Below are positions 41,855-64,000 of a DNA stretch of 64,000 bases, one piece after another (within the stretch, counting starts at the first letter, position 1; each line of letters starts with the position of its first letter). A program made the position numbers and the translations under genes. The notes below the pieces were generated by a model, which made no database searches, was not told the origin of the DNA, and worked only from the letters and a program-made list of their open reading frames with translations. The stretch covers positions 2,718-66,717 of the forward strand of contig JAEETX010000004.1 in NCBI GenBank assembly GCA_016286665.1, written 5' to 3'. The stretch is from Oscillospiraceae bacterium (GTDB lineage Bacteria; Bacillota; Clostridia; Oscillospirales; Oscillospiraceae).

Positions 41855-46305
<4,451 letters not shown>

Positions 46306-48538: not shown

Positions 48539-50920
48539 TCATATTTTCAGTTCCGCGATGGTGACGCCGTCTTCCCCTTCTCCGTAACGTCCCAGCCGGA
48601 AGCTTTTGACACCGGGATCGCGGCGGAGATAATCCTGAACGGCTTTGCGCAGAGCGCCGGTACCCTTGCCGTGGATGATGCGCACGCTGGGCAGCTTCGC
48701 CGTCCTCGCGGAATCCAGATACCGTTCCAGCATCAGCAGCGCTTCGTCCGTCATGCTGCCCCGCAGGTCCACCTCCGGGCTGACCGCCAGCCTGTGGATC
48801 TGCGCGTCCGTTTTTTTCTTGAATTTGAGCTTGACCTTTTCGGCCTCCTCCACGAGGCGAACTTCCTCCTGCTTGGCTGTGATGCGAAGGATGCCTGCCT
48901 GCAGGGTCAGGGTACCGTCCGCGCCGGCGGAGATCACGCTGGCCTGGGTGCCCAGCTTCAGCAGCAGAACCGTGTCGCCGGCCCTGGCCGGGCGTGTGGG
49001 CTTCTGCGAAAGCTCCTCCTCGTCATGGGAAACGCCCAGACTGTCCTGCGCGTCGTTCAGCTTCTTCATGAGACTGACGCGTTCTTCGTTGATCTGCTGG
49101 GCGTTCTCCGCCCGAACAGCCTTCTTGCGCATCTCGTTCAGCTCGTCGAACACTTCATCGGAGACGCGCTTTGCCTCCCGCAGCAGACGGTCCGCTTCCC
49201 GTCTGGCGCCGGCGCCGGCCTTCTGCCGTTCCTCCTCCGCCGCTTTTCGCTGTTCGGCGGCCGCTCTGGCGTCTTCCTCCGCCTGGAGACGAAGTTTTTC
49301 CGCCTCCAGCTTTGCCTGCTCCATCTTCTGCTGTTCCTTCTGCAGCAGGGACACCACCTGTTCAAAGTCCGTCTGCTCCGAGGCCATCCGCCCCTTGGCG
49401 TCGTCGATGATGCTCTCGTCCAGGCCGAGCCGGCGAGAGATCTCAAAGGCGTTGGATTTTCCGGGAATACCCATGAGCAGACGGTAGGTGGGGCGAAGGG
49501 TCTCCACATCGAACTCGCAGGAGGCGTTCATGACGCCGGCGGTGGCGGTTGCGTAGACCTTCAACTCCGCATAATGGGTCGTGGCGGCGATCCTGGCCCC
49601 CTGGCTGCGGGCATATTCAATAATGGCGATGGCAAGCGCCGCGCCTTCCGCCGGATCGGTGCCCGCTCCCAGCTCGTCAAAGAGGATCAGCGTGTCTTCA
49701 TCCGCTTCTTTCAGCATTCCGACGATGTTGCTCATATGGGAGGAAAAGGTGGACAGGGACTGTTCGATGCTTTGCTCATCCCCCACGTCGGCCAGCACCT
49801 TTTTCAGTACCGGCACGGCGCTGCCGCTGTCTGCGGGGATATGGAGGCCGCAGGCGGCCATGAGACAGCAGACCCCCAGCGTTTTCAGGCTGACGGTCTT
49901 CCCGCCGGTGTTGGGGCCGGTGATCACCAGGGTGTCGAACTGCCCGCCCACGGAGATATCGATGGGGACCGCTTTTTTGGGGTCGATGAGGGGGTGCCGG
50001 GCGCGTTTCAGGCTGATGCAGCCGTCTTCACTGAGCCTCGGCGCATCTGCCCGCATCCGGTAGCTGAGCTTTGCCTTTGCAAAAACGAGGTCGAGACGCA
50101 CCAGAACATGCTGATCGCACAGGATGTCCTCCTCAAAGGAGGCGGCGTCATTGCTCAGCTCCATCAGGATGCGTTCGATCTCCTTCTTCTCCTTCGCCTG
50201 GAGCTCCCGAATCTCGTTGTTCGCCTGCACCACCTGCATGGGCTCGATAAAAATCGTCTGCCCGCTGGAGGATACGTCGTGCACCAGCCCGCCCAAAGCG
50301 CCCTTGTGCTCCGCTTTTACGGGGATCACATAGCGGTCGGAGCGCATGGTGATGATGGGTTCCTGCAGGACCTTGGCATAGGAGGGCGAAGTGATGATCT
50401 TATTCAGCACGTCCCGGATGCGGGCGTTGGCCGCCCGCATGTGGCGGCGGATGGAGGCCAGCTCGCTGCTGGCCGCATCGGCGATTTCTTCCTCCCCCAC
50501 GATGGAGAGGGTGATCTTCTCCTCCAGGAATTTGTTGGCGATCAGGGCGCCGAAAAGGCCGGTCAGGCTCCCGGCTTCGTCGGAGGTCCAGCTTTTCATC
50601 TGCCTTGCTGCCCGAAGGACGCCGGCGATATCCAGAAGCTCCCTTGTATTGAGCATGCCGCCCAGGCGGGCCCGGGAGAGGCTGCCGGTCACTTCCCGGA
50701 TATCGGATAGAGGGGGCGTTCCCTTCAGGGAAATGAGCCTCTTTGCGTCCGAGGTCTCCTGCAGCTTTTCGCTGACCTCCGTCCGGATATCCGCAGGCCG
50801 CAGCTTCAGGGCTTCGTCTTTGGCCGCTTCACAGACCGCCTCCTCCTGAAGGAGCTTCAGGATCTGCGGCAGCTCCAGTGTTCGCATGGATTTTTCATAG
50901 AATTCTTCTCTTGTAATCAT
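48539..50920 (-). CDS. mutS2: Endonuclease MutS2 (MutS domain V ATPase plus C-terminal Smr domain)
   Basis: 793 aa with Walker A GPNTGGKTVSLK, Walker B LILFDELGAGTDP and Smr LDLRG...IIHGKGTGALR. Confidence 0.95.
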   Translation of the reverse strand: MITREEFYEKSMRTLELPQILKLLQEEAVCEAAKDEALKLRPADIRTEVSEKLQETSDAKRLISLKGTPPLSDIREVTGSLSRARLGGMLNTRELLDIAGVLRAARQMKSWTSDEAGSLTGLFGALIANKFLEEKITLSIVGEEEIADAASSELASIRRHMRAANARIRDVLNKIITSPSYAKVLQEPIITMRSDRYVIPVKAEHKGALGGLVHDVSSSGQTIFIEPMQVVQANNEIRELQAKEKKEIERILMELSNDAASFEEDILCDQHVLVRLDLVFAKAKLSYRMRADAPRLSEDGCISLKRARHPLIDPKKAVPIDISVGGQFDTLVITGPNTGGKTVSLKTLGVCCLMAACGLHIPADSGSAVPVLKKVLADVGDEQSIEQSLSTFSSHMSNIVGMLKEADEDTLILFDELGAGTDPAEGAALAIAIIEYARSQGARIAATTHYAELKVYATATAGVMNASCEFDVETLRPTYRLLMGIPGKSNAFEISRRLGLDESIIDDAKGRMASEQTDFEQVVSLLQKEQQKMEQAKLEAEKLRLQAEEDARAAAEQRKAAEEERQKAGAGARREADRLLREAKRVSDEVFDELNEMRKKAVRAENAQQINEERVSLMKKLNDAQDSLGVSHDEEELSQKPTRPARAGDTVLLLKLGTQASVISAGADGTLTLQAGILRITAKQEEVRLVEEAEKVKLKFKKKTDAQIHRLAVSPEVDLRGSMTDEALLMLERYLDSARTAKLPSVRIIHGKGTGALRKAVQDYLRRDPGVKSFRLGRYGEGEDGVTIAELKI

Positions 50921-58199: not shown

Positions 58200-58276
58200 G
58201 CCCACGTAGCTCAGCAGGATAGAGCGGCCGCCTCCTAAGCGGCAGGCCAGAGGTTCGAATCCTCCCGTGGGTGCCA
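58200..58276 (+). tRNA. tRNA-Arg (anticodon CCT)
   Basis: Manual cloverleaf: acceptor GCCCACG/CGTGGGT, anticodon stem GCCGC/GCGGC with loop CTCCTAA, T-loop TTCGAAT, encoded CCA; 77 nt. Confidence 0.9.
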
Positions 58277-58532: not shown

Positions 58533-60014
58533 TCAATTATAACCCATGCGCTCGCGCGCGGCCTTGAAGCTCTCCATCGCCTCGCGGATCGCTGCTTCAT
58601 CGCCGCTCCCCTGCAGACTTTTCACCTTGTCATACTGGCGGCGGGCGATGACCGCCATCTGCGTGGGATCGCTGGAGGTGGGGTCGGGGGTGTATCTGGG
58701 ATCGTTTGCCAGCTTGGCGATCTCGGGGCTGCGGTAACTCAGCGTCTCCTCGCTGCCTTCCCCGACGGGGCCTTGCGCCGTCGCCGTGTCGGCTGCGGCA
58801 GGCGCACCGCCGCCCCTGAGCCGGCCTGCCAGGCCAAGGAAGTTAAGAATGCCTCTCGAGCCGCTCAGATCCTCAAAGTCTTCCGCGGCAGTTCCCATCT
58901 TCGACGCGTCAGCGCCCTCCATGTTCTGGTTGATGCCTCTCTGAAGCGATTTGGATAGTTTGACCAGCTGCTTCTTCTTTTGGGGATCCGTTTCACCCAC
59001 CGATCTCATGGTGCCGTGCGGCGCAGCGGCGCGCAGCATGAAGTTGCTCATGAGCATCTGGTCCTGATCCGCCTCGTTCGCGTAATGCACGGAGCCCTGG
59101 AACGCCCCTCTCGCGCCGGTGATCATGTGGGTCAGGTGCTTGTCGCCCTCTACGGCGGCGGTGAGCATATCCGAAGCCTGGTCTACCCGCTCCATGCCTG
59201 TCAGACCGCCGGTTGCGTCCTCGATCTTTGACATGTGGGGATCGACAAGGCGCCTGAGCATTTCATTATAGGTCCTGTTGGCGTCGCCGACGCCCGCTGA
59301 TTTTCTCCACGTCTCCGAGAAAGCGACTTGCTTGGACGAGTCGTTGTACTTCTGCAGTTCTCCGCTCATCTCGGCGTTGAAATCCCTGAGCACGCGGTCC
59401 TGCACGTCCTGCCGCTGGAGGTCCTTCAGCTTTGCTCCGCGGATCATTTCAGGCGTGAGCTTTTCGGCGTTGACCAGCTTCTTGGAGCCCTTCGACGCCT
59501 GCATCGGCCCGGCGGCGCTCGTCGCCGAGACGTTCGACATCGCCGCCGTCGGCGCGGCGTAGACCTGCTGGCCTGATGCGGCCATCGCGCCCTCACGGTC
59601 GGCGCGGGCCTCGAGCATGGAATCGTTCAGAAATCCGCCGCCGCTTACCTCGCCGCGCTGCTGCGAAACCACATGGCTGATCTCATGGCCCAGCAGCGCC
59701 TGTCCGCTGTAGCTGGTAAAGTCCAGCACGCCGGGCGCAAAGGCGATGCTGCTGCCCTGGGCGACGGCGTTGGCGCCCGCGTCGGCCACGGTCTGGCTCT
59801 CATAGAGCCTGACGGCGGAGAGGTCGGCCCCGAAGGACGCCTCCATCTTCGCGCGGATGGCGTCGGGCAGATCGACGCGGTGGCCTATCTGTTCCTGACT
59901 CGGCGCGGCGCCTGCGCGCAGGGCTTCCAGACTCGGACCCGAAACGGCGGCTTCCGTCTGGGCCGCCTGCTTCACGGCGCTTTTTTTCTTATCGGCATAT
60001 GCAGAAATCCCCAT
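58533..60014 (-). CDS. DUF4157-domain (HExxH metallopeptidase-like) protein with an uncharacterised ~330-aa C-terminal region
   Basis: N-terminal LPDAIRAKMEASFGADLSAVRLYES...AFAPG...LLGHEISHVVSQQRG matches the DUF4157 pattern. No signal peptide. SD AAGAGGAG. Confidence 0.8.
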   Translation of the reverse strand: MGISAYADKKKSAVKQAAQTEAAVSGPSLEALRAGAAPSQEQIGHRVDLPDAIRAKMEASFGADLSAVRLYESQTVADAGANAVAQGSSIAFAPGVLDFTSYSGQALLGHEISHVVSQQRGEVSGGGFLNDSMLEARADREGAMAASGQQVYAAPTAAMSNVSATSAAGPMQASKGSKKLVNAEKLTPEMIRGAKLKDLQRQDVQDRVLRDFNAEMSGELQKYNDSSKQVAFSETWRKSAGVGDANRTYNEMLRRLVDPHMSKIEDATGGLTGMERVDQASDMLTAAVEGDKHLTHMITGARGAFQGSVHYANEADQDQMLMSNFMLRAAAPHGTMRSVGETDPQKKKQLVKLSKSLQRGINQNMEGADASKMGTAAEDFEDLSGSRGILNFLGLAGRLRGGGAPAAADTATAQGPVGEGSEETLSYRSPEIAKLANDPRYTPDPTSSDPTQMAVIARRQYDKVKSLQGSGDEAAIREAMESFKAARERMGYN

Positions 60015-60054
60015 GGCGATCTCCTCTTAAACCCAAATATTCTCATTTTTTAGT

Positions 60055-60084
60055 ATTATAAAAATACGTCGGTCTCCTTGTCAA
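60055..60084 (-). promoter_or_regulatory. Consensus sigma-70 promoter of the DUF4157 gene (TTGACA-18-TATAAT)
   Basis: On the minus strand, TTGACA at 60084-60079 and TATAAT at 60060-55, about 40 nt upstream of the ATG. Confidence 0.7.
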
Positions 60085-60335
60085 GACCACGGTATGAAAA
60101 ACATCGTGAACCGGTATTTACTAAAATTCATATTGACGAAGCTGATGTGGCAGTGAAATGACGCCAATCGCCGCGCGTCAGCTAACCTCATTTTCTTCTG
60201 ATTTGTGTGCGCTTCCCGCTGCCGTCGCCCTGCTTTGCATGAAAGGAGACGCGACGCTCAGCTTTCCTGTGTATTTACATTCCGCAGATAATCTGATAAA
60301 ATTAACCGAATAATGGAGCAGAAGGTACCGTTTCT

Positions 60336-61805
60336 ATGAGCTATCCCAGTTTATTGTTTACCGAAAAAGCGGCCGGACGGCGGATCGCCGCGCATGTCTT
60401 CGAGGATGTGAAGCTGACCGCCTTTTTCTCGGAGGAATCCATCGGCGCGATGCGGGCTCTTTGCCGTCCGGAGGACATTCCCGTCCGGCAGGACCTGCTG
60501 CGCTATCTGGACGGGAATCCTTCCGTGCGGCAGTCCCTGCAGGAGCTGTCCGATATCACGGTGGAGCTGATGCGCCTTCACGCCGCTTTGCAGGATGTGA
60601 AGTGCGAGAATGAGCGGCACTATGTCTTCGTCGGGCTGATGGCGGCGGCAGCGGATTTCGCGCTGGTAGCCGCCTCCCTTCCCGACGCCGGCGGTCCCCT
60701 GCTGCAGCGCTTCGGGAACCGCTTCCGCGCAGACTGCGGGGACGCTGCGCGCAGCGCGCAGATCGAAAAAGCGCGGGAGCTTCGCAAGATGGCGGACGAG
60801 GCCCGGCGGGAGACCTTCCGCATGTCCGGGGATAACCTCTGGATGCGTCCGGATTTCCGGGAGAGCTATGTGGAGCGGCTGAAACGCTGCGCGGACGAGC
60901 TGGGACTCCCGCCCTATCGGGGCAGCCGGGATGTTTCCCTGCGCCTTGACGCCAGGATGGTGAACGCGCTGGCCCGGCTGCACCCGGAAGCATTCCTGGC
61001 ATTTCGGGAATTCTACACCAGCTGCGCCGGGAGCTTTGACGAATCCATCCTCAGCTACCGTTTCGAGCTGGACTTTTATCTGGAAGCGCTGAAGCTGATG
61101 GACCGCATCCGCGCTGCCGGCCTCCCTCTGTGCTGGCCGGTGATTTCCCATGAAAAGGTGATCGAACTCCGCGAGCTCTATGATATCTCCCTGCTGCTCA
61201 AGGAGGGCGTCACCATCATTCCCAACGACGCCCATTTCAGCGCCAGCGAACCCTTCTTCTTCCTGACCGGCGCAAACGGCGGCGGCAAAACGACCTATCT
61301 CCGCGCGCTGGCCAACGCCGTGGTGCTTTGCCTCTCCGGCTGCCCCGTCTGCGCCAGGGAAGCGGTCATCTCCCCGCTGGACAATGTGTTCACCCACTTT
61401 CCCCAGGACGAACGCTTTGAGGCAGACGGCCGCTATGCCGACGAACAGAGGCGTGTCGGCGAGATCCTCGATGCCCACAACGGCAACAGCCTGATCCTCC
61501 TGAACGAGACCTACTCCACCACCAACGAGGAGCTGGCCGTCAGCAGCACCCTGGAGCTGACGGAAAAGCTGAAAGGAAGCGGCAGCTTTACCCTCTATAT
61601 CACCCACCAGCACGGGCTGGAATCGGCGAACGTACCCTTCCTCAGCGTCATCGTGGATCAGGACGACCAGAACCGGAGGACCTACCGCATCGCCCGGCGG
61701 CTGGAGGCGGAGGGGTCCTACGCCGCCGATATCCTCCGGCGCTATGGCCTGGATGAGGAATCCCTGCTTCGGCGCTTCGGCGGGAACGGAGGTGCGCAAG
61801 CATGA
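60336..61805 (+). CDS. MutS-related ATPase A (core/clamp-like helical region plus domain V; no mismatch-binding, Smr or other nuclease domain)
   Basis: 489 aa with Walker A LTGANGGGKTTYLRAL, Walker B-like SLILLNETYSTTN and THQHGL. Confidence 0.8.
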   Translation: MSYPSLLFTEKAAGRRIAAHVFEDVKLTAFFSEESIGAMRALCRPEDIPVRQDLLRYLDGNPSVRQSLQELSDITVELMRLHAALQDVKCENERHYVFVGLMAAAADFALVAASLPDAGGPLLQRFGNRFRADCGDAARSAQIEKARELRKMADEARRETFRMSGDNLWMRPDFRESYVERLKRCADELGLPPYRGSRDVSLRLDARMVNALARLHPEAFLAFREFYTSCAGSFDESILSYRFELDFYLEALKLMDRIRAAGLPLCWPVISHEKVIELRELYDISLLLKEGVTIIPNDAHFSASEPFFFLTGANGGGKTTYLRALANAVVLCLSGCPVCAREAVISPLDNVFTHFPQDERFEADGRYADEQRRVGEILDAHNGNSLILLNETYSTTNEELAVSSTLELTEKLKGSGSFTLYITHQHGLESANVPFLSVIVDQDDQNRRTYRIARRLEAEGSYAADILRRYGLDEESLLRRFGGNGGAQA

Positions 61806-63304
61806 AATTCAGTCTGCTCTACAAGAACTATGAGGAAATGCGGCAGTTCACCGCCGATCCCATGCGGGAGGCCATGGAGGAGACGCTGTATGACCTCAGC
61901 GTAGATAAAGCCGTCATGGAGCTCTGCGCCTCCGGGGAAACCGGAAGCTATACCTTGGAAGTACTGAAAAAGCCCCTGAAGAACGCCGCGGAAATCGAAT
62001 ACCGGCAGGCGATCCTGATGGATTTCGTCAGCAGTCCACGCCTGCTGGAGGAATTGCAGGATATCTTCAAGAACTATGACACCCTGCAGAGCGACTGGCG
62101 GGAGATGCAGGCCGGCATCTATACTTACGGGGTGCCCCAGACCTCCGGCGGCGTGCTGGACGCCACCTACGAAGCGCTGAAGCTCACCGCATCCTTTGCC
62201 AGAAAGACCGTCAGCTATTTCCGTACGGTCTATGAGACCGTCGGCCGCTACGAGGTCCGCAGCGAGGGGCTGACGGGCATCCGGGAATACTGCCGTGAGA
62301 TGACGGAAAACCGCTCGCTGGACGAGATCGCCGAGATTTCTTCTCTGTTCCAGCGGGAAACGGTGGACGCCTATCGGTTCAAGGTCCGCTCGGAAACGGA
62401 CGACACCCTGCGCATCACCTCCGCCAGCCTGACGGAGGTGCTGGAGACGGAGGACACCAGCCTCAGCGAACGGATGAAGCGCCTGGCGGCCCGCCTCACC
62501 CGCACGGCCCCTCCCCCCGACGAAACGCCGGAGGTGGACATGGGCGAATTCCACCTGGAGACTGCCCGCAGCATCCTCAATGAGGGCCTTTATGAGCTCT
62601 ACACCGTCCTGGGCAGCATTGCCGGAAGCATCTATGAATTCTTCCGGGGCATCAGCGGCGAGCTGGGCTTTTATGACACCGGCCTGCGCTTTGTCCGCCG
62701 CCTGCTGAAGGAGGGCGCGCCCATGTGCATGCCGAAGATGCTGCCCATGGAGGCGGACGCTTTCCGCACGAAGAATCTCTATGACCTGCATCTGCTGCTG
62801 GAGGGTATGCCCATCACGAAGATCGTCCGCAACGATGTGGTGATCGAAAACTGCGACGGGACGCTCATCCGCGGCGCCAACTCCACCGGAAAGACCTGCA
62901 CCATCCGGTCCATCGGCGCGGCCATCCTCTTTGCGCAGGCAGGGCTGCCGGTCTGCGCGGAGAACGCGGAGATCAGCCTGCGGGACATGCTTTTCTGCCA
63001 GTTCTCCTCCGCGGAAAAGGATTTCGACGCTTCCGACGCTGCCGGCCGCTTTGAGGGCGAGGTCAAGGAAGTCGCCGCCATTCTGGAAAAGATCACCCCC
63101 TGGTCCCTGGTGCTGTTCAACGAAACCTTCCAGACCACCTCCTATGCGGAGGGTGCCAAGGGCATGCAGCACATCCTGGAAGCCCTGACGCGTTCGGGAT
63201 GCCGCTATGTTTTCGTGACCCACATGCCCATCTTTGACCGGATGACCTCTCCCCGCGTCCTGAAGCTGGATTTCGGCAGGGACTATCGCATTACGAGGCT
63301 TTGA
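61802..63304 (+). CDS. MutS-related ATPase B, paralog of A and translationally coupled to it
   Basis: 500 aa with Walker A IRGANSTGKTCTIRSIG, Walker B-like SLVLFNETFQTTS and THMP. The ATGA overlaps the stop of gene A. Confidence 0.8.
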   Translation: MKFSLLYKNYEEMRQFTADPMREAMEETLYDLSVDKAVMELCASGETGSYTLEVLKKPLKNAAEIEYRQAILMDFVSSPRLLEELQDIFKNYDTLQSDWREMQAGIYTYGVPQTSGGVLDATYEALKLTASFARKTVSYFRTVYETVGRYEVRSEGLTGIREYCREMTENRSLDEIAEISSLFQRETVDAYRFKVRSETDDTLRITSASLTEVLETEDTSLSERMKRLAARLTRTAPPPDETPEVDMGEFHLETARSILNEGLYELYTVLGSIAGSIYEFFRGISGELGFYDTGLRFVRRLLKEGAPMCMPKMLPMEADAFRTKNLYDLHLLLEGMPITKIVRNDVVIENCDGTLIRGANSTGKTCTIRSIGAAILFAQAGLPVCAENAEISLRDMLFCQFSSAEKDFDASDAAGRFEGEVKEVAAILEKITPWSLVLFNETFQTTSYAEGAKGMQHILEALTRSGCRYVFVTHMPIFDRMTSPRVLKLDFGRDYRITRL

Positions 63305-63305
63305 G

Positions 63306-64000
63306 ATGCTGAACCGGGAATACCGCACTTCACTCATCCGCAAATATGCCAGAAGTCCGGAGGATGACGCGCTGCTGGCGCGGCTGCTGGACAAGGCGGA
63401 TATCCATGACCGCAGCGGCCTGATGCAGCACAGCCGTTTCCTCAGCGAGCGTGACAGGCTCTGCTGCGAGCCGGTGCTGCGGGAGCTGGGCAAGGAAGCT
63501 GTGTTCTGGGGCGGTTATGCCGAGGCGGAGCGCACGGTGCTGATCCTGCCCGCCCTATGGCAGGATGCGGAGAGCGTCTGCCGGGGCGAAGCTTCCCCGG
63601 TCAGCGTGCTGCGGGCTTCCTTCCGGGCGGAGGAACGCCTGAGCCATCGGGATTTTCTCGGCGCGCTCATGGGCCTGGGCATCGAACGGGATCTGGTGGG
63701 CGATATCCTTCCGAAGGAAGGAAGCTGCGATATCGTGCTTCTCCGCGAGATCGCTCCCTATGTGCAGCAAAACCTTCTCTCCGCGGGCCGCGCTTCCCTT
63801 TCCCTTGCGGAAATACCGGAGGCGGAAGCCGGGGAAGCGGAATTCCGCCTGATCCTGGATACGGTGGCCAGCGTGCGGCTGGATGCGGTGGTGGGCTGCG
63901 GGTTCCATCTGTCCCGCGAAAAGGCGGCTGACGCCATTCGAAGCGGCAAGGTGTTCCTCAGCGGAATGGAATGCCTCAAGCCGGACAAGCCGGTAGAGGC
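63306..64000 (+). CDS. ylmH: YlmH-like S4-domain RNA-binding protein; 3' end lies outside the window
   Basis: Not in the supplied ORF track; translated by hand from ATG 63306, which lies 7 nt after GAGG and 1 nt after the upstream stop. HRDFLGALMGLGIERDLVGDI and VASVRLDAVVGCGFHLSREKAADAIRSGKVFL match the YlmH pattern. The frame stays open to the window end. Confidence 0.75.
   Translation, partial: MLNREYRTSLIRKYARSPEDDALLARLLDKADIHDRSGLMQHSRFLSERDRLCCEPVLRELGKEAVFWGGYAEAERTVLILPALWQDAESVCRGEASPVSVLRASFRAEERLSHRDFLGALMGLGIERDLVGDILPKEGSCDIVLLREIAPYVQQNLLSAGRASLSLAEIPEAEAGEAEFRLILDTVASVRLDAVVGCGFHLSREKAADAIRSGKVFLSGMECLKPDKPVE

Follow-up and report, generated by a model that had tools for sequence, protein, structure and literature searches.

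The MutS4 subfamily was defined by Lin, Nei and Ma (2007) as proteins with the MutSac domain only, usually present in two adjacent copies, MutS4A and MutS4B, the stop of the former overlapping the start of the latter (PMC2190696). Its first members came from two archaea and a handful of distantly related bacteria, the clostridial Thermoanaerobacter tengcongensis among them (PMC2190696). Adjacent and overlapping 4A and 4B genes were later described as the signature structure of MutS4 (Kim et al., 2017; PMC5742357). Named since 2007, MutS4 is a functionally blank branch of the MutS family; the sole functional experiment on it is the increase in homologous recombination conferred on Mycobacterium smegmatis by the MutS4 operon of M. 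yongonense (PMC5742357). The present analysis concerns a pair of MutS-like genes, A and B, located near the end of a 64,000-nt stretch (the window) of contig JAEETX010000004.1 of an Oscillospiraceae bacterium. A first-pass annotation of this DNA had proposed a new system, in which a heterodimer-like pair of minimal MutS ATPases acts as a clamp on ribosomes or RNA together with the product of an adjacent ylmH-type gene. The observation itself was confirmed: the pair is real, paralogous, minimal and very probably heterodimeric. Novelty and the role with YlmH on the ribosome were not upheld, the neighbouring ylmH having been over-read. What is added here is the placement of the pair as a distant clostridial member of the known MutS4A/MutS4B kind.

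Gene A (60336..61805, forward strand) is an ORF of 489 aa, encoding a MutS4A-like subunit, and gene B (61802..63304, forward strand) is an ORF of 500 aa, encoding a MutS4B-like subunit. The ATG of B occupies positions 61802–61804 and the TGA of A positions 61803–61805, so that the sequence ATGA (61802..61805, forward strand) places the start of B over the stop of A, indicating translational coupling; a GGAGG motif lies 8 nt 5′ of the B start. At E ≤ 1e-5, 598 database homologs of A and 312 of B were found among the candidates scored. Because of these many homologs, A and B are considered real genes and not chance ORFs.

All features of the published MutS4 structure are found in the window pair: adjacent paralogs, A-then-B order, stop/start overlap and a MutS_V domain in proteins that lack MutS-I, MutS-II and Smr. 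In a tblastn search of plasmids, query B recovered such pairs on 47 plasmids at E ≤ 1e-10, and query A gave 95 records at E ≤ 1e-3. The plasmid pair of M. branderi (locus L083) corresponds to proteins WP_083134047.1 and WP_083134046.1, which are listed as M. branderi MutS4A and MutS4B in Table S3 of Kim et al. (PMC5742357). In BLASTP comparisons, A of the window scored 124–139 bits with MutS4A proteins, 95 bits with B of the window, 83–99 bits with MutS4B and 46 bits with the window's MutS2. The corresponding scores of B were 105–108 bits with MutS4B, 95 bits with A of the window, 70–72 bits with MutS4A and 45 bits with MutS2. Outside their own family the best partners are thus reciprocal, A pairing with MutS4A and B with MutS4B. 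Clostridial and published pairs also have in common an N-terminal S-L-L-aromatic motif, represented by SLLF in A and SLLY in B, and C-terminal YGL helices that occur in A-type proteins only; MutS2 has neither.

In a bootstrapped neighbour-joining tree, each of the four groups (clostridial A, clostridial B, MutS4A and MutS4B) was solidly recovered, two at 100% and the others at 99 and 95%. The four groups stood together at 98% against an outgroup of two sequences, E. coli MutS and the MutS2 of the window, with MutS3, MutS5 and KamC left out of the tree. Clostridial A joined MutS4A at 36% and clostridial B joined MutS4B at 58%, while the groupings expected from independent duplications appeared at 20% (clostridial A with B) and 2% (MutS4A with MutS4B). 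Separate duplications in the clostridial and MutS4 lines are disfavoured by these values. Since overlap-coupled minimal paralogs already define MutS4A/MutS4B, the pair is not a new system, as had been supposed; it fits the published signature and clusters with the named MutS4 proteins. With high confidence, the window pair can be assigned to a deep and distant clostridial branch of MutS4A/MutS4B, of the Oscillospiraceae type. The two sets share a size of about 500 aa for each protein, the restriction to a MutS core and ATPase, the fixed A–B order, and the nucleotide-site motifs described below. They differ in that clostridial A and B form well-supported clades separate from the published members, in that the clostridial pair lies in a chromosomal housekeeping context and the published ones on plasmids or genomic islands, and in that ylmH is appended in one clostridial sublineage.

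The only Pfam domain found in either protein is MutS_V (E = 4e-15 in A and 8e-17 in B), and no match to MutS_I, MutS_II, MutS_III, MutS_IV, Smr, HNH, KOW or MSSS was obtained for A or B with Pfam. Features of MutS1 are likewise absent: MutS_I and MutS_II are missing, and the NCBIfam MutS models give 50–67 bits, against cutoffs of 480–642. The two proteins are 32% identical over 222 aa of their ATPase halves (E = 4e-25), which bears out their reported paralogy. Single-chain AlphaFold2 models were built for A from a 14-sequence alignment and for B from 23 sequences, with mean confidence (pLDDT) of 82 and 81, respectively. Both consist of an all-helical N-terminal half followed by an ABC-type ATPase. 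Foldseek alignments of about 500 columns link each of them to MSH2, MSH3, bacterial MutS and the core of Thermus thermophilus MutS2, with E values of about 1e-16 to 1e-18. As modelled, A and B are a MutS core (domain III) plus domain V and nothing more, in line with the minimal architecture first described for them. The subunits are not equivalent. B has a longer helical core and a beta-hairpin (residues 191–215) at the position of the MutS clamp; the corresponding region of A (residues ~161–201) is short, modelled with low confidence and vestigial. A ends in two conserved helices (residues 462–481, SYAxDILxxYGL) that B lacks.

Comparison with other MutS-type proteins places the pair beside two better-described groups. 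Like MutS2/RqcU, the A and B proteins lack the mismatch-recognition domain I, have the common core and domain V fold (Foldseek matches 7vuf/7vuk, TM-score ~0.55) and belong to a MutS lineage that departed from mismatch repair. However, MutS2/RqcU is a one-gene homodimer with KOW, MSSS/SH3 and Smr domains and an Asp-Glu Walker B, whereas A and B are encoded by two genes, have Asn-Glu at this position and contain none of those domains. Obligate pairing of diverged paralogs into asymmetric subunits is known from the eukaryotic heterodimers MSH2–MSH6, MSH2–MSH3 and MSH4–MSH5, and MSH4–MSH5 is also devoid of domain I. The best Foldseek and PDB-sequence matches of A and B are MSH2 and MSH3. Unlike the MSH proteins, A and B lack both domains I and II, have far smaller clamps and show no specific phylogenetic link to them; the resemblance is an architectural analogy, not membership.

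The nucleotide-binding sites are distinctive. In A, Walker A is GANGGGKT (residues 312–319; 61269..61292, forward strand), invariant in the family, and Walker B reads LLNET, with N390-E391 (61503..61508, forward strand) in place of the Asp-Glu of MutS. In B, Walker A is GANSTGKT (residues 358–365; 62873..62896, forward strand) and Walker B reads LFNET, with N440-E441 (63119..63124, forward strand), both of which are invariant in the B alignment. All MutS4A/B proteins examined keep the Asn-Glu Walker B, as do 83 A-type and 76 B-type family sequences. At the place of the Ser-Thr-Phe signature loop known from MutS and MutS2, both sites carry Gly-Arg/Lys followed by an aromatic or aliphatic residue, Gly-Arg-Tyr/Phe in the window pair. 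Asn-Glu, together with the motifs THF..E and G-[KR]-h, was present in all 16 MutS4-type proteins aligned and absent from MutS2, and the latter two motifs are also conserved across those 83 A and 76 B sequences. In clostridial A the T-H motif keeps its His, where the MutS4A of Actinobacteria, Proteobacteria and Alicyclobacillus has Phe. The combination of Asn-Glu and G-[KR]-h as a signature was derived in the present analysis and lies outside the published MutS4 definition. In E. coli MutS, the corresponding D693N substitution empties the metal pocket, lowers ATP affinity about 15-fold and makes both switching and in vivo repair slower (PMC2857095). With Asn fixed in both subunits and Arg or Lys in the signature loop acting in trans, these data suggest by analogy that A/B is likely a slow, weakly Mg2+-dependent ATP-binding switch and not a fast ATPase.

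When 1.84 billion cluster representatives were searched with a profile, 1256 representatives of 50%-identity clusters belonging to the MutS4-type family were retrieved at E ≤ 1e-30, nearly all of about 480–520 aa. The 10 clusters looked up carried only the name “hypothetical protein” and consisted of proteins from metagenome-assembled genomes. A scan of one genome per species found the family in at least 216 species, and the best 80 loci plus two more, all 82 from different species, were analyzed; having been picked as the top matches to the family of the window, they are biased toward close relatives. Of the 79 loci that extend far enough downstream, 75 have B after A on the same strand and in the same order. 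Among these 75 junctions, 36 are 4-nt overlaps and seven are 1-nt overlaps, and a 4-nt A–B overlap is present in all eight plasmid MutS4 loci. A 25.9-kb contig of the Logan assemblies encodes a protein of 1106 aa (P0256) in which two MutS4-like modules are naturally fused in tandem, each half resembling the A family and the B family to about the same degree. Co-occurrence, translational coupling, subunit asymmetry and this fusion together point to a dimer. A and B are likely to form an obligate asymmetric MutS-type heterodimer, and the heterodimer-like character first proposed for them appears very probable given the 75/79 pairing, the fixed order, the usual overlap and the unlike subunits.

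Solitary A genes without B occur in four loci (L054:2982-4424, L056:101-1549, L059:7001-8449 and L063:4290-5663), which fall in two small clades; judged by eye, the genes downstream resemble QueA and CysK and look unrelated. A different partner on the upstream side of these loci was considered and rejected, as the upstream gene encodes RpoD or an unrelated protein. The solo genes suggest that the pair now and then reverts to one gene, whose product may be a homodimer. A constant third partner was sought by all-versus-all clustering of 2622 ORFs, and no family other than A, B and antisense shadow ORFs was present in more than 10 of the 82 loci. The Pfam families most often encoded directly downstream of B (n = 70) are YlmH (8), SLH (6), Band_7 (5), GDSL (5) and NrdR (4); those upstream of A (n = 76) are HAD hydrolases (13), RpoD (9) and CpsB (7). 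In some relatives (L008:1643-9491 and L016:5031-11160), the pair stands directly behind the macromolecular-synthesis operon, in the order HD phosphohydrolase, dnaG, rpoD, A, B, ylmH, and rpoD of L008 ends at the start of A or overlaps it. The tree of A proteins consists of coherent, deep clades. From gene order and phylogeny, the clostridial pair is apparently a self-contained two-gene module, vertically inherited in housekeeping surroundings.

The third gene, which had escaped the ORF track, begins immediately behind the pair. The stop codon of B (63302–63304) is followed by a single base and then by the ATG at position 63306, with a GAGG Shine-Dalgarno motif (63295..63298, forward strand) located 7 nt ahead of this start. 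On re-reading of the sequence, the coordinates first given for A, B, the ATGA overlap, this start and the GAGG spacing all proved correct. The frame (63306..64000, forward strand) is open up to the end of the window and comprises the 5′ part of a ylmH-type gene, 231 codons in length, encoding the YlmH RNA-binding domain and the start of an S4 domain, inside which the window copy is cut. The fragment matches Pfam YlmH_RBD at 50.3 bits, against a cutoff of 23, and the full-length ortholog in L001, a relative of 84% identity, is a 266-aa protein with YlmH_RBD and S4, so the YlmH-type call holds. A search with phmmer, followed by a profile built from the hits, detected YlmH in 10 of the 82 loci, directly after B in eight and separated from it by a Band_7 gene in two; with this profile, no further YlmH was found in the other 72 loci at E ≤ 1. 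In a neighbour-joining tree of A proteins rooted with MutS4A, a single crown clade holds all 10 YlmH loci together with the window, while its sister group (L009–L014) and every deeper clade have no link to YlmH. Since the sample is biased to close relatives, the true frequency of YlmH should be lower than 10/82. The adjacency, surveyed by gene order across the 82 loci, is therefore sporadic and confined to that clade, and ylmH is best read as a lineage-specific operon passenger and not as a component of the system. Within the clade the B–ylmH junction is always tight, which points to co-expression there; on adjacency alone, a functional tie between A/B and YlmH may exist inside the YlmH-linked clade.

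The explanation that we favour, and rate somewhat above an even chance as a whole, is a clostridial MutS4 pair that forms an ATP-switch heterodimer, probably works on DNA and carries ylmH as a passenger. Two ancient paralogs, encoded as A then B and usually translationally coupled, would dimerize through domain V like all MutS proteins. The resulting heterodimer would be free of mismatch-recognition, connector, Smr and KOW modules and would have Asn-Glu in both of its nucleotide sites. Its helical lever arms, carrying a small beta-hairpin clamp in B and a vestigial clamp in A, would close around nucleic acid. The most likely substrate would be duplex or branched DNA, such as recombination intermediates. 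DNA is ranked first because of the recombination result in M. smegmatis and the lever and clamp architecture, although a DNA or recombination substrate is a tentative assignment that we would give about one chance in three.

Several observations weigh against parts of this explanation. Identity to the published MutS4 proteins is just 25–30%, and the orthology of A with MutS4A and of B with MutS4B is weakly resolved by the bootstrap values given above. The four loci with solo A depart from obligate pairing, and the tandem fusion is a single metagenomic sequence that could be an assembly artefact. The DNA substrate derives from one modest heterologous experiment with a distant relative, and the hairpin taken as the clamp of B shows little sequence conservation. 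The junction between B and ylmH is tight in nine of nine crown-clade cases, including the window, ranging from a 7-nt overlap to a 9-nt gap. Finally, the non-clostridial MutS4 pairs are tied to fluoride regulons, hinting at a role in stress rather than in DNA metabolism.

Four rival explanations were ranked in the order of a fluoride- or ion-stress ATPase, a ribosome/YlmH function, KamC-like remodelling and a defence module. In the stress-ATPase explanation, MutS4 pairs would serve the response to fluoride, ion or phosphoryl-transfer poisoning, with the clostridial branch as a constitutively expressed descendant; Asn-Glu and the basic loop would give largely metal-independent nucleotide binding, resistant to trapping by Mg/Al-fluoride. 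The plasmid pairs speak for it. A fluoride riboswitch (RF01734, 39–59 bits against a cutoff of 34) was identified in seven of the eight plasmid MutS4 loci. It lies directly upstream of MutS4A in M. branderi (L083:5416-5476), Caballeronia (L085:5450-5513), Alicyclobacillus (L086:3133-3194) and Burkholderia cenocepacia (L089:2569-2630), at the head of the operon in Klebsiella (L084:3425-3485) and at other positions of the island in Rhodococcus (L088) and Rubrobacter (L090), Tsukamurella alone being without it. Genes neighbouring the plasmid pairs include crcB and eno and encode a DHHA2-domain protein, universal stress proteins, a cation:proton antiporter and a protein of the chloride-channel family (CLC); the fluoride-resistance operon characterized in Enterobacter cloacae is made up of part of this gene set (ppaC, uspA, eno and crcB). 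An enolase gene is also carried by the M. yongonense MutS4 island, and “mutS” was listed among the genes controlled by the crcB motif (Weinberg et al., 2010). Emptying of the Mg2+ site in MutS D693N agrees with metal-independent binding. However, no fluoride riboswitch was detected with Rfam in the window or in 13 clostridial loci, nor in the 82 clostridial loci with a regular expression that recovers 7/7 of the Rfam positives. The families of the fluoride islands do not commonly flank the clostridial genes either: crcB, enolase and pyrophosphatase lie outside the 25 commonest Pfam families flanking A/B in clostridial loci, and a P-type ATPase (E1-E2_ATPase) is encoded upstream of A in just five of them. 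Moreover, metal independence is extrapolated from one mutant study, and the target of the ATPase is left unsaid. We regard a stress-ATPase function as unlikely.

The proposal that A/B acts as a MutS2-like clamp, sensing or splitting stalled ribosomes or acting on RNA, with YlmH in ribosome-associated quality control, is improbable. The same holds for a narrower version, in which the MutS4 heterodimer was co-opted for translation quality control within the Oscillospiraceae sublineage that has a coupled A-B-ylmH operon; it would work beside YlmH on ribosomes that are stalled or split, and Asn-Glu, metal-poor ATP sites would make it a switch rather than a motor. The background invoked for it at first was accurate: YlmH is a factor of this pathway in Bacillus subtilis (PMC11317155), and MutS2 provides a precedent for a MutS-family ATPase acting on ribosomes, its recruitment to collided ribosomes by KOW and Smr being reported for B. 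subtilis by Park et al. (2023), as cited in PMC11317155. The gap of one nucleotide between B and ylmH, a junction equally tight in eight related loci, and the Shine-Dalgarno motif ahead of ylmH point the same way, as does L001 (4688-7823), where ribosomal protein L31, an HflX-type GTPase, an IMPACT/YigZ protein and an AlaX-like editing protein are encoded upstream of A and MetRS downstream. This translation-rich context, however, is absent from the window in spite of 84% identity. The neighbour is lineage-specific, other downstream neighbours (SLH, Band_7, GDSL, NrdR) are unrelated, a Band_7 gene intervenes in two loci, and A and B lack the KOW and Smr modules. Besides, the window already contains a canonical mutS2 (48539–50920, reverse strand) with MutS_V, the MSSS SH3 domain and Smr, as had been noticed. 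Still less probable is action on a protein client in the manner of KamC, a lysine 5,6-aminomutase reactivase ATPase according to NCBIfam. KamC is likewise a minimal MutS-like ATPase of about 500 aa, its NCBIfam model (508 positions) is the top or second match of both A and B, residues 262–436 of A are colinear with model positions 263–439, and a mutS-family gene is present in lysine-fermentation clusters (PMC3149608). The similarity, however, is limited to the ATPase half and scores no better than the MutS1 model, and families of aminomutases and B12 enzymes are outside the 25 commonest flanking Pfam families of the 82 loci. Membership in KamC (NF052383) was rejected, as A and B reach 60.4 and 59.5 bits, far below the cutoff of 300. 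A mobile anti-phage module built on a pair of ABC/MutS-type ATPases is the most remote of these explanations. Variable neighbourhoods, the horizontal mobility of MutS4 on plasmids and weak PADLOC P-loop matches to PtuA, DndD and mad8 (E ~1e-3) would agree with defence. Assignment to a defence system was rejected, as these matches span the Walker A stretch only and are not significant. No nuclease or other effector partner accompanies the genes, their housekeeping flanks show clade-wise synteny (rpoD, dnaG, HAD, NrdR), and the deep coherent clades of A look like vertical inheritance.

Upstream of A, a promoter-like site (60274..60302, forward strand; TTTACA-17 nt-TAAAAT, with TG before the –10 element) was recognized by consensus match only and ends 33 nt 5′ of the gene. 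No riboswitch or other Rfam family was found in the A leader, either in the scan of the whole window at gathering score or in that of 59900–60450 at E ≤ 10. When the 320-nt leader was compared with 79 upstream regions using nhmmer, it matched those of the two closest relatives only. Two riboswitches of other types occur near clostridial pairs and probably serve neighbouring genes, not the pair: a cobalamin riboswitch that begins right at the end of gene B in L081 (9876-10085, forward strand) and, some 2 kb beyond B in L035 (12087-12286, reverse strand), a lysine riboswitch.

Divergently from gene A, the window encodes a 493-aa eCIS_core protein, similar to zinc metallopeptidases of the DUF4157 type (58533–60014, reverse strand), with a promoter-like site at 60084–60055 on the reverse strand that perfectly matches TTGACA-18-TATAAT. 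This gene stands where close relatives have housekeeping genes upstream of A. A tRNA gene is located at 58200–58273 on the forward strand. The reverse strand between 48539 and 55266 carries a conserved housekeeping run encoding YqfD, PhoH, YbeY, an Era-type GTPase, RecO and MutS2. Farther upstream, a 748-aa ORF (44059–46305, reverse strand) joins an OSCP (ATP synthase delta) domain to an entire ATP synthase alpha subunit, an apparent delta-alpha fusion.

The MutS4 family is far larger than the handful of species first listed, and includes a deep branch in Clostridia of the gut, rumen and digesters. The loci with riboswitches connect the phylogenetic label “MutS4” with the “mutS” of the fluoride-riboswitch literature. 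The replacement of Asp by Asn in Walker B and the basic signature loop, found in all members, predict an unusual, weakly metal-dependent handling of nucleotides. A substrate, if found, would fill one of the last blank branches of a textbook protein family. If the improbable reading as a translation-control factor were true, it would give a MutS4 protein a function for the first time and make it the second MutS to have turned to ribosomes, by an evolution of its own.

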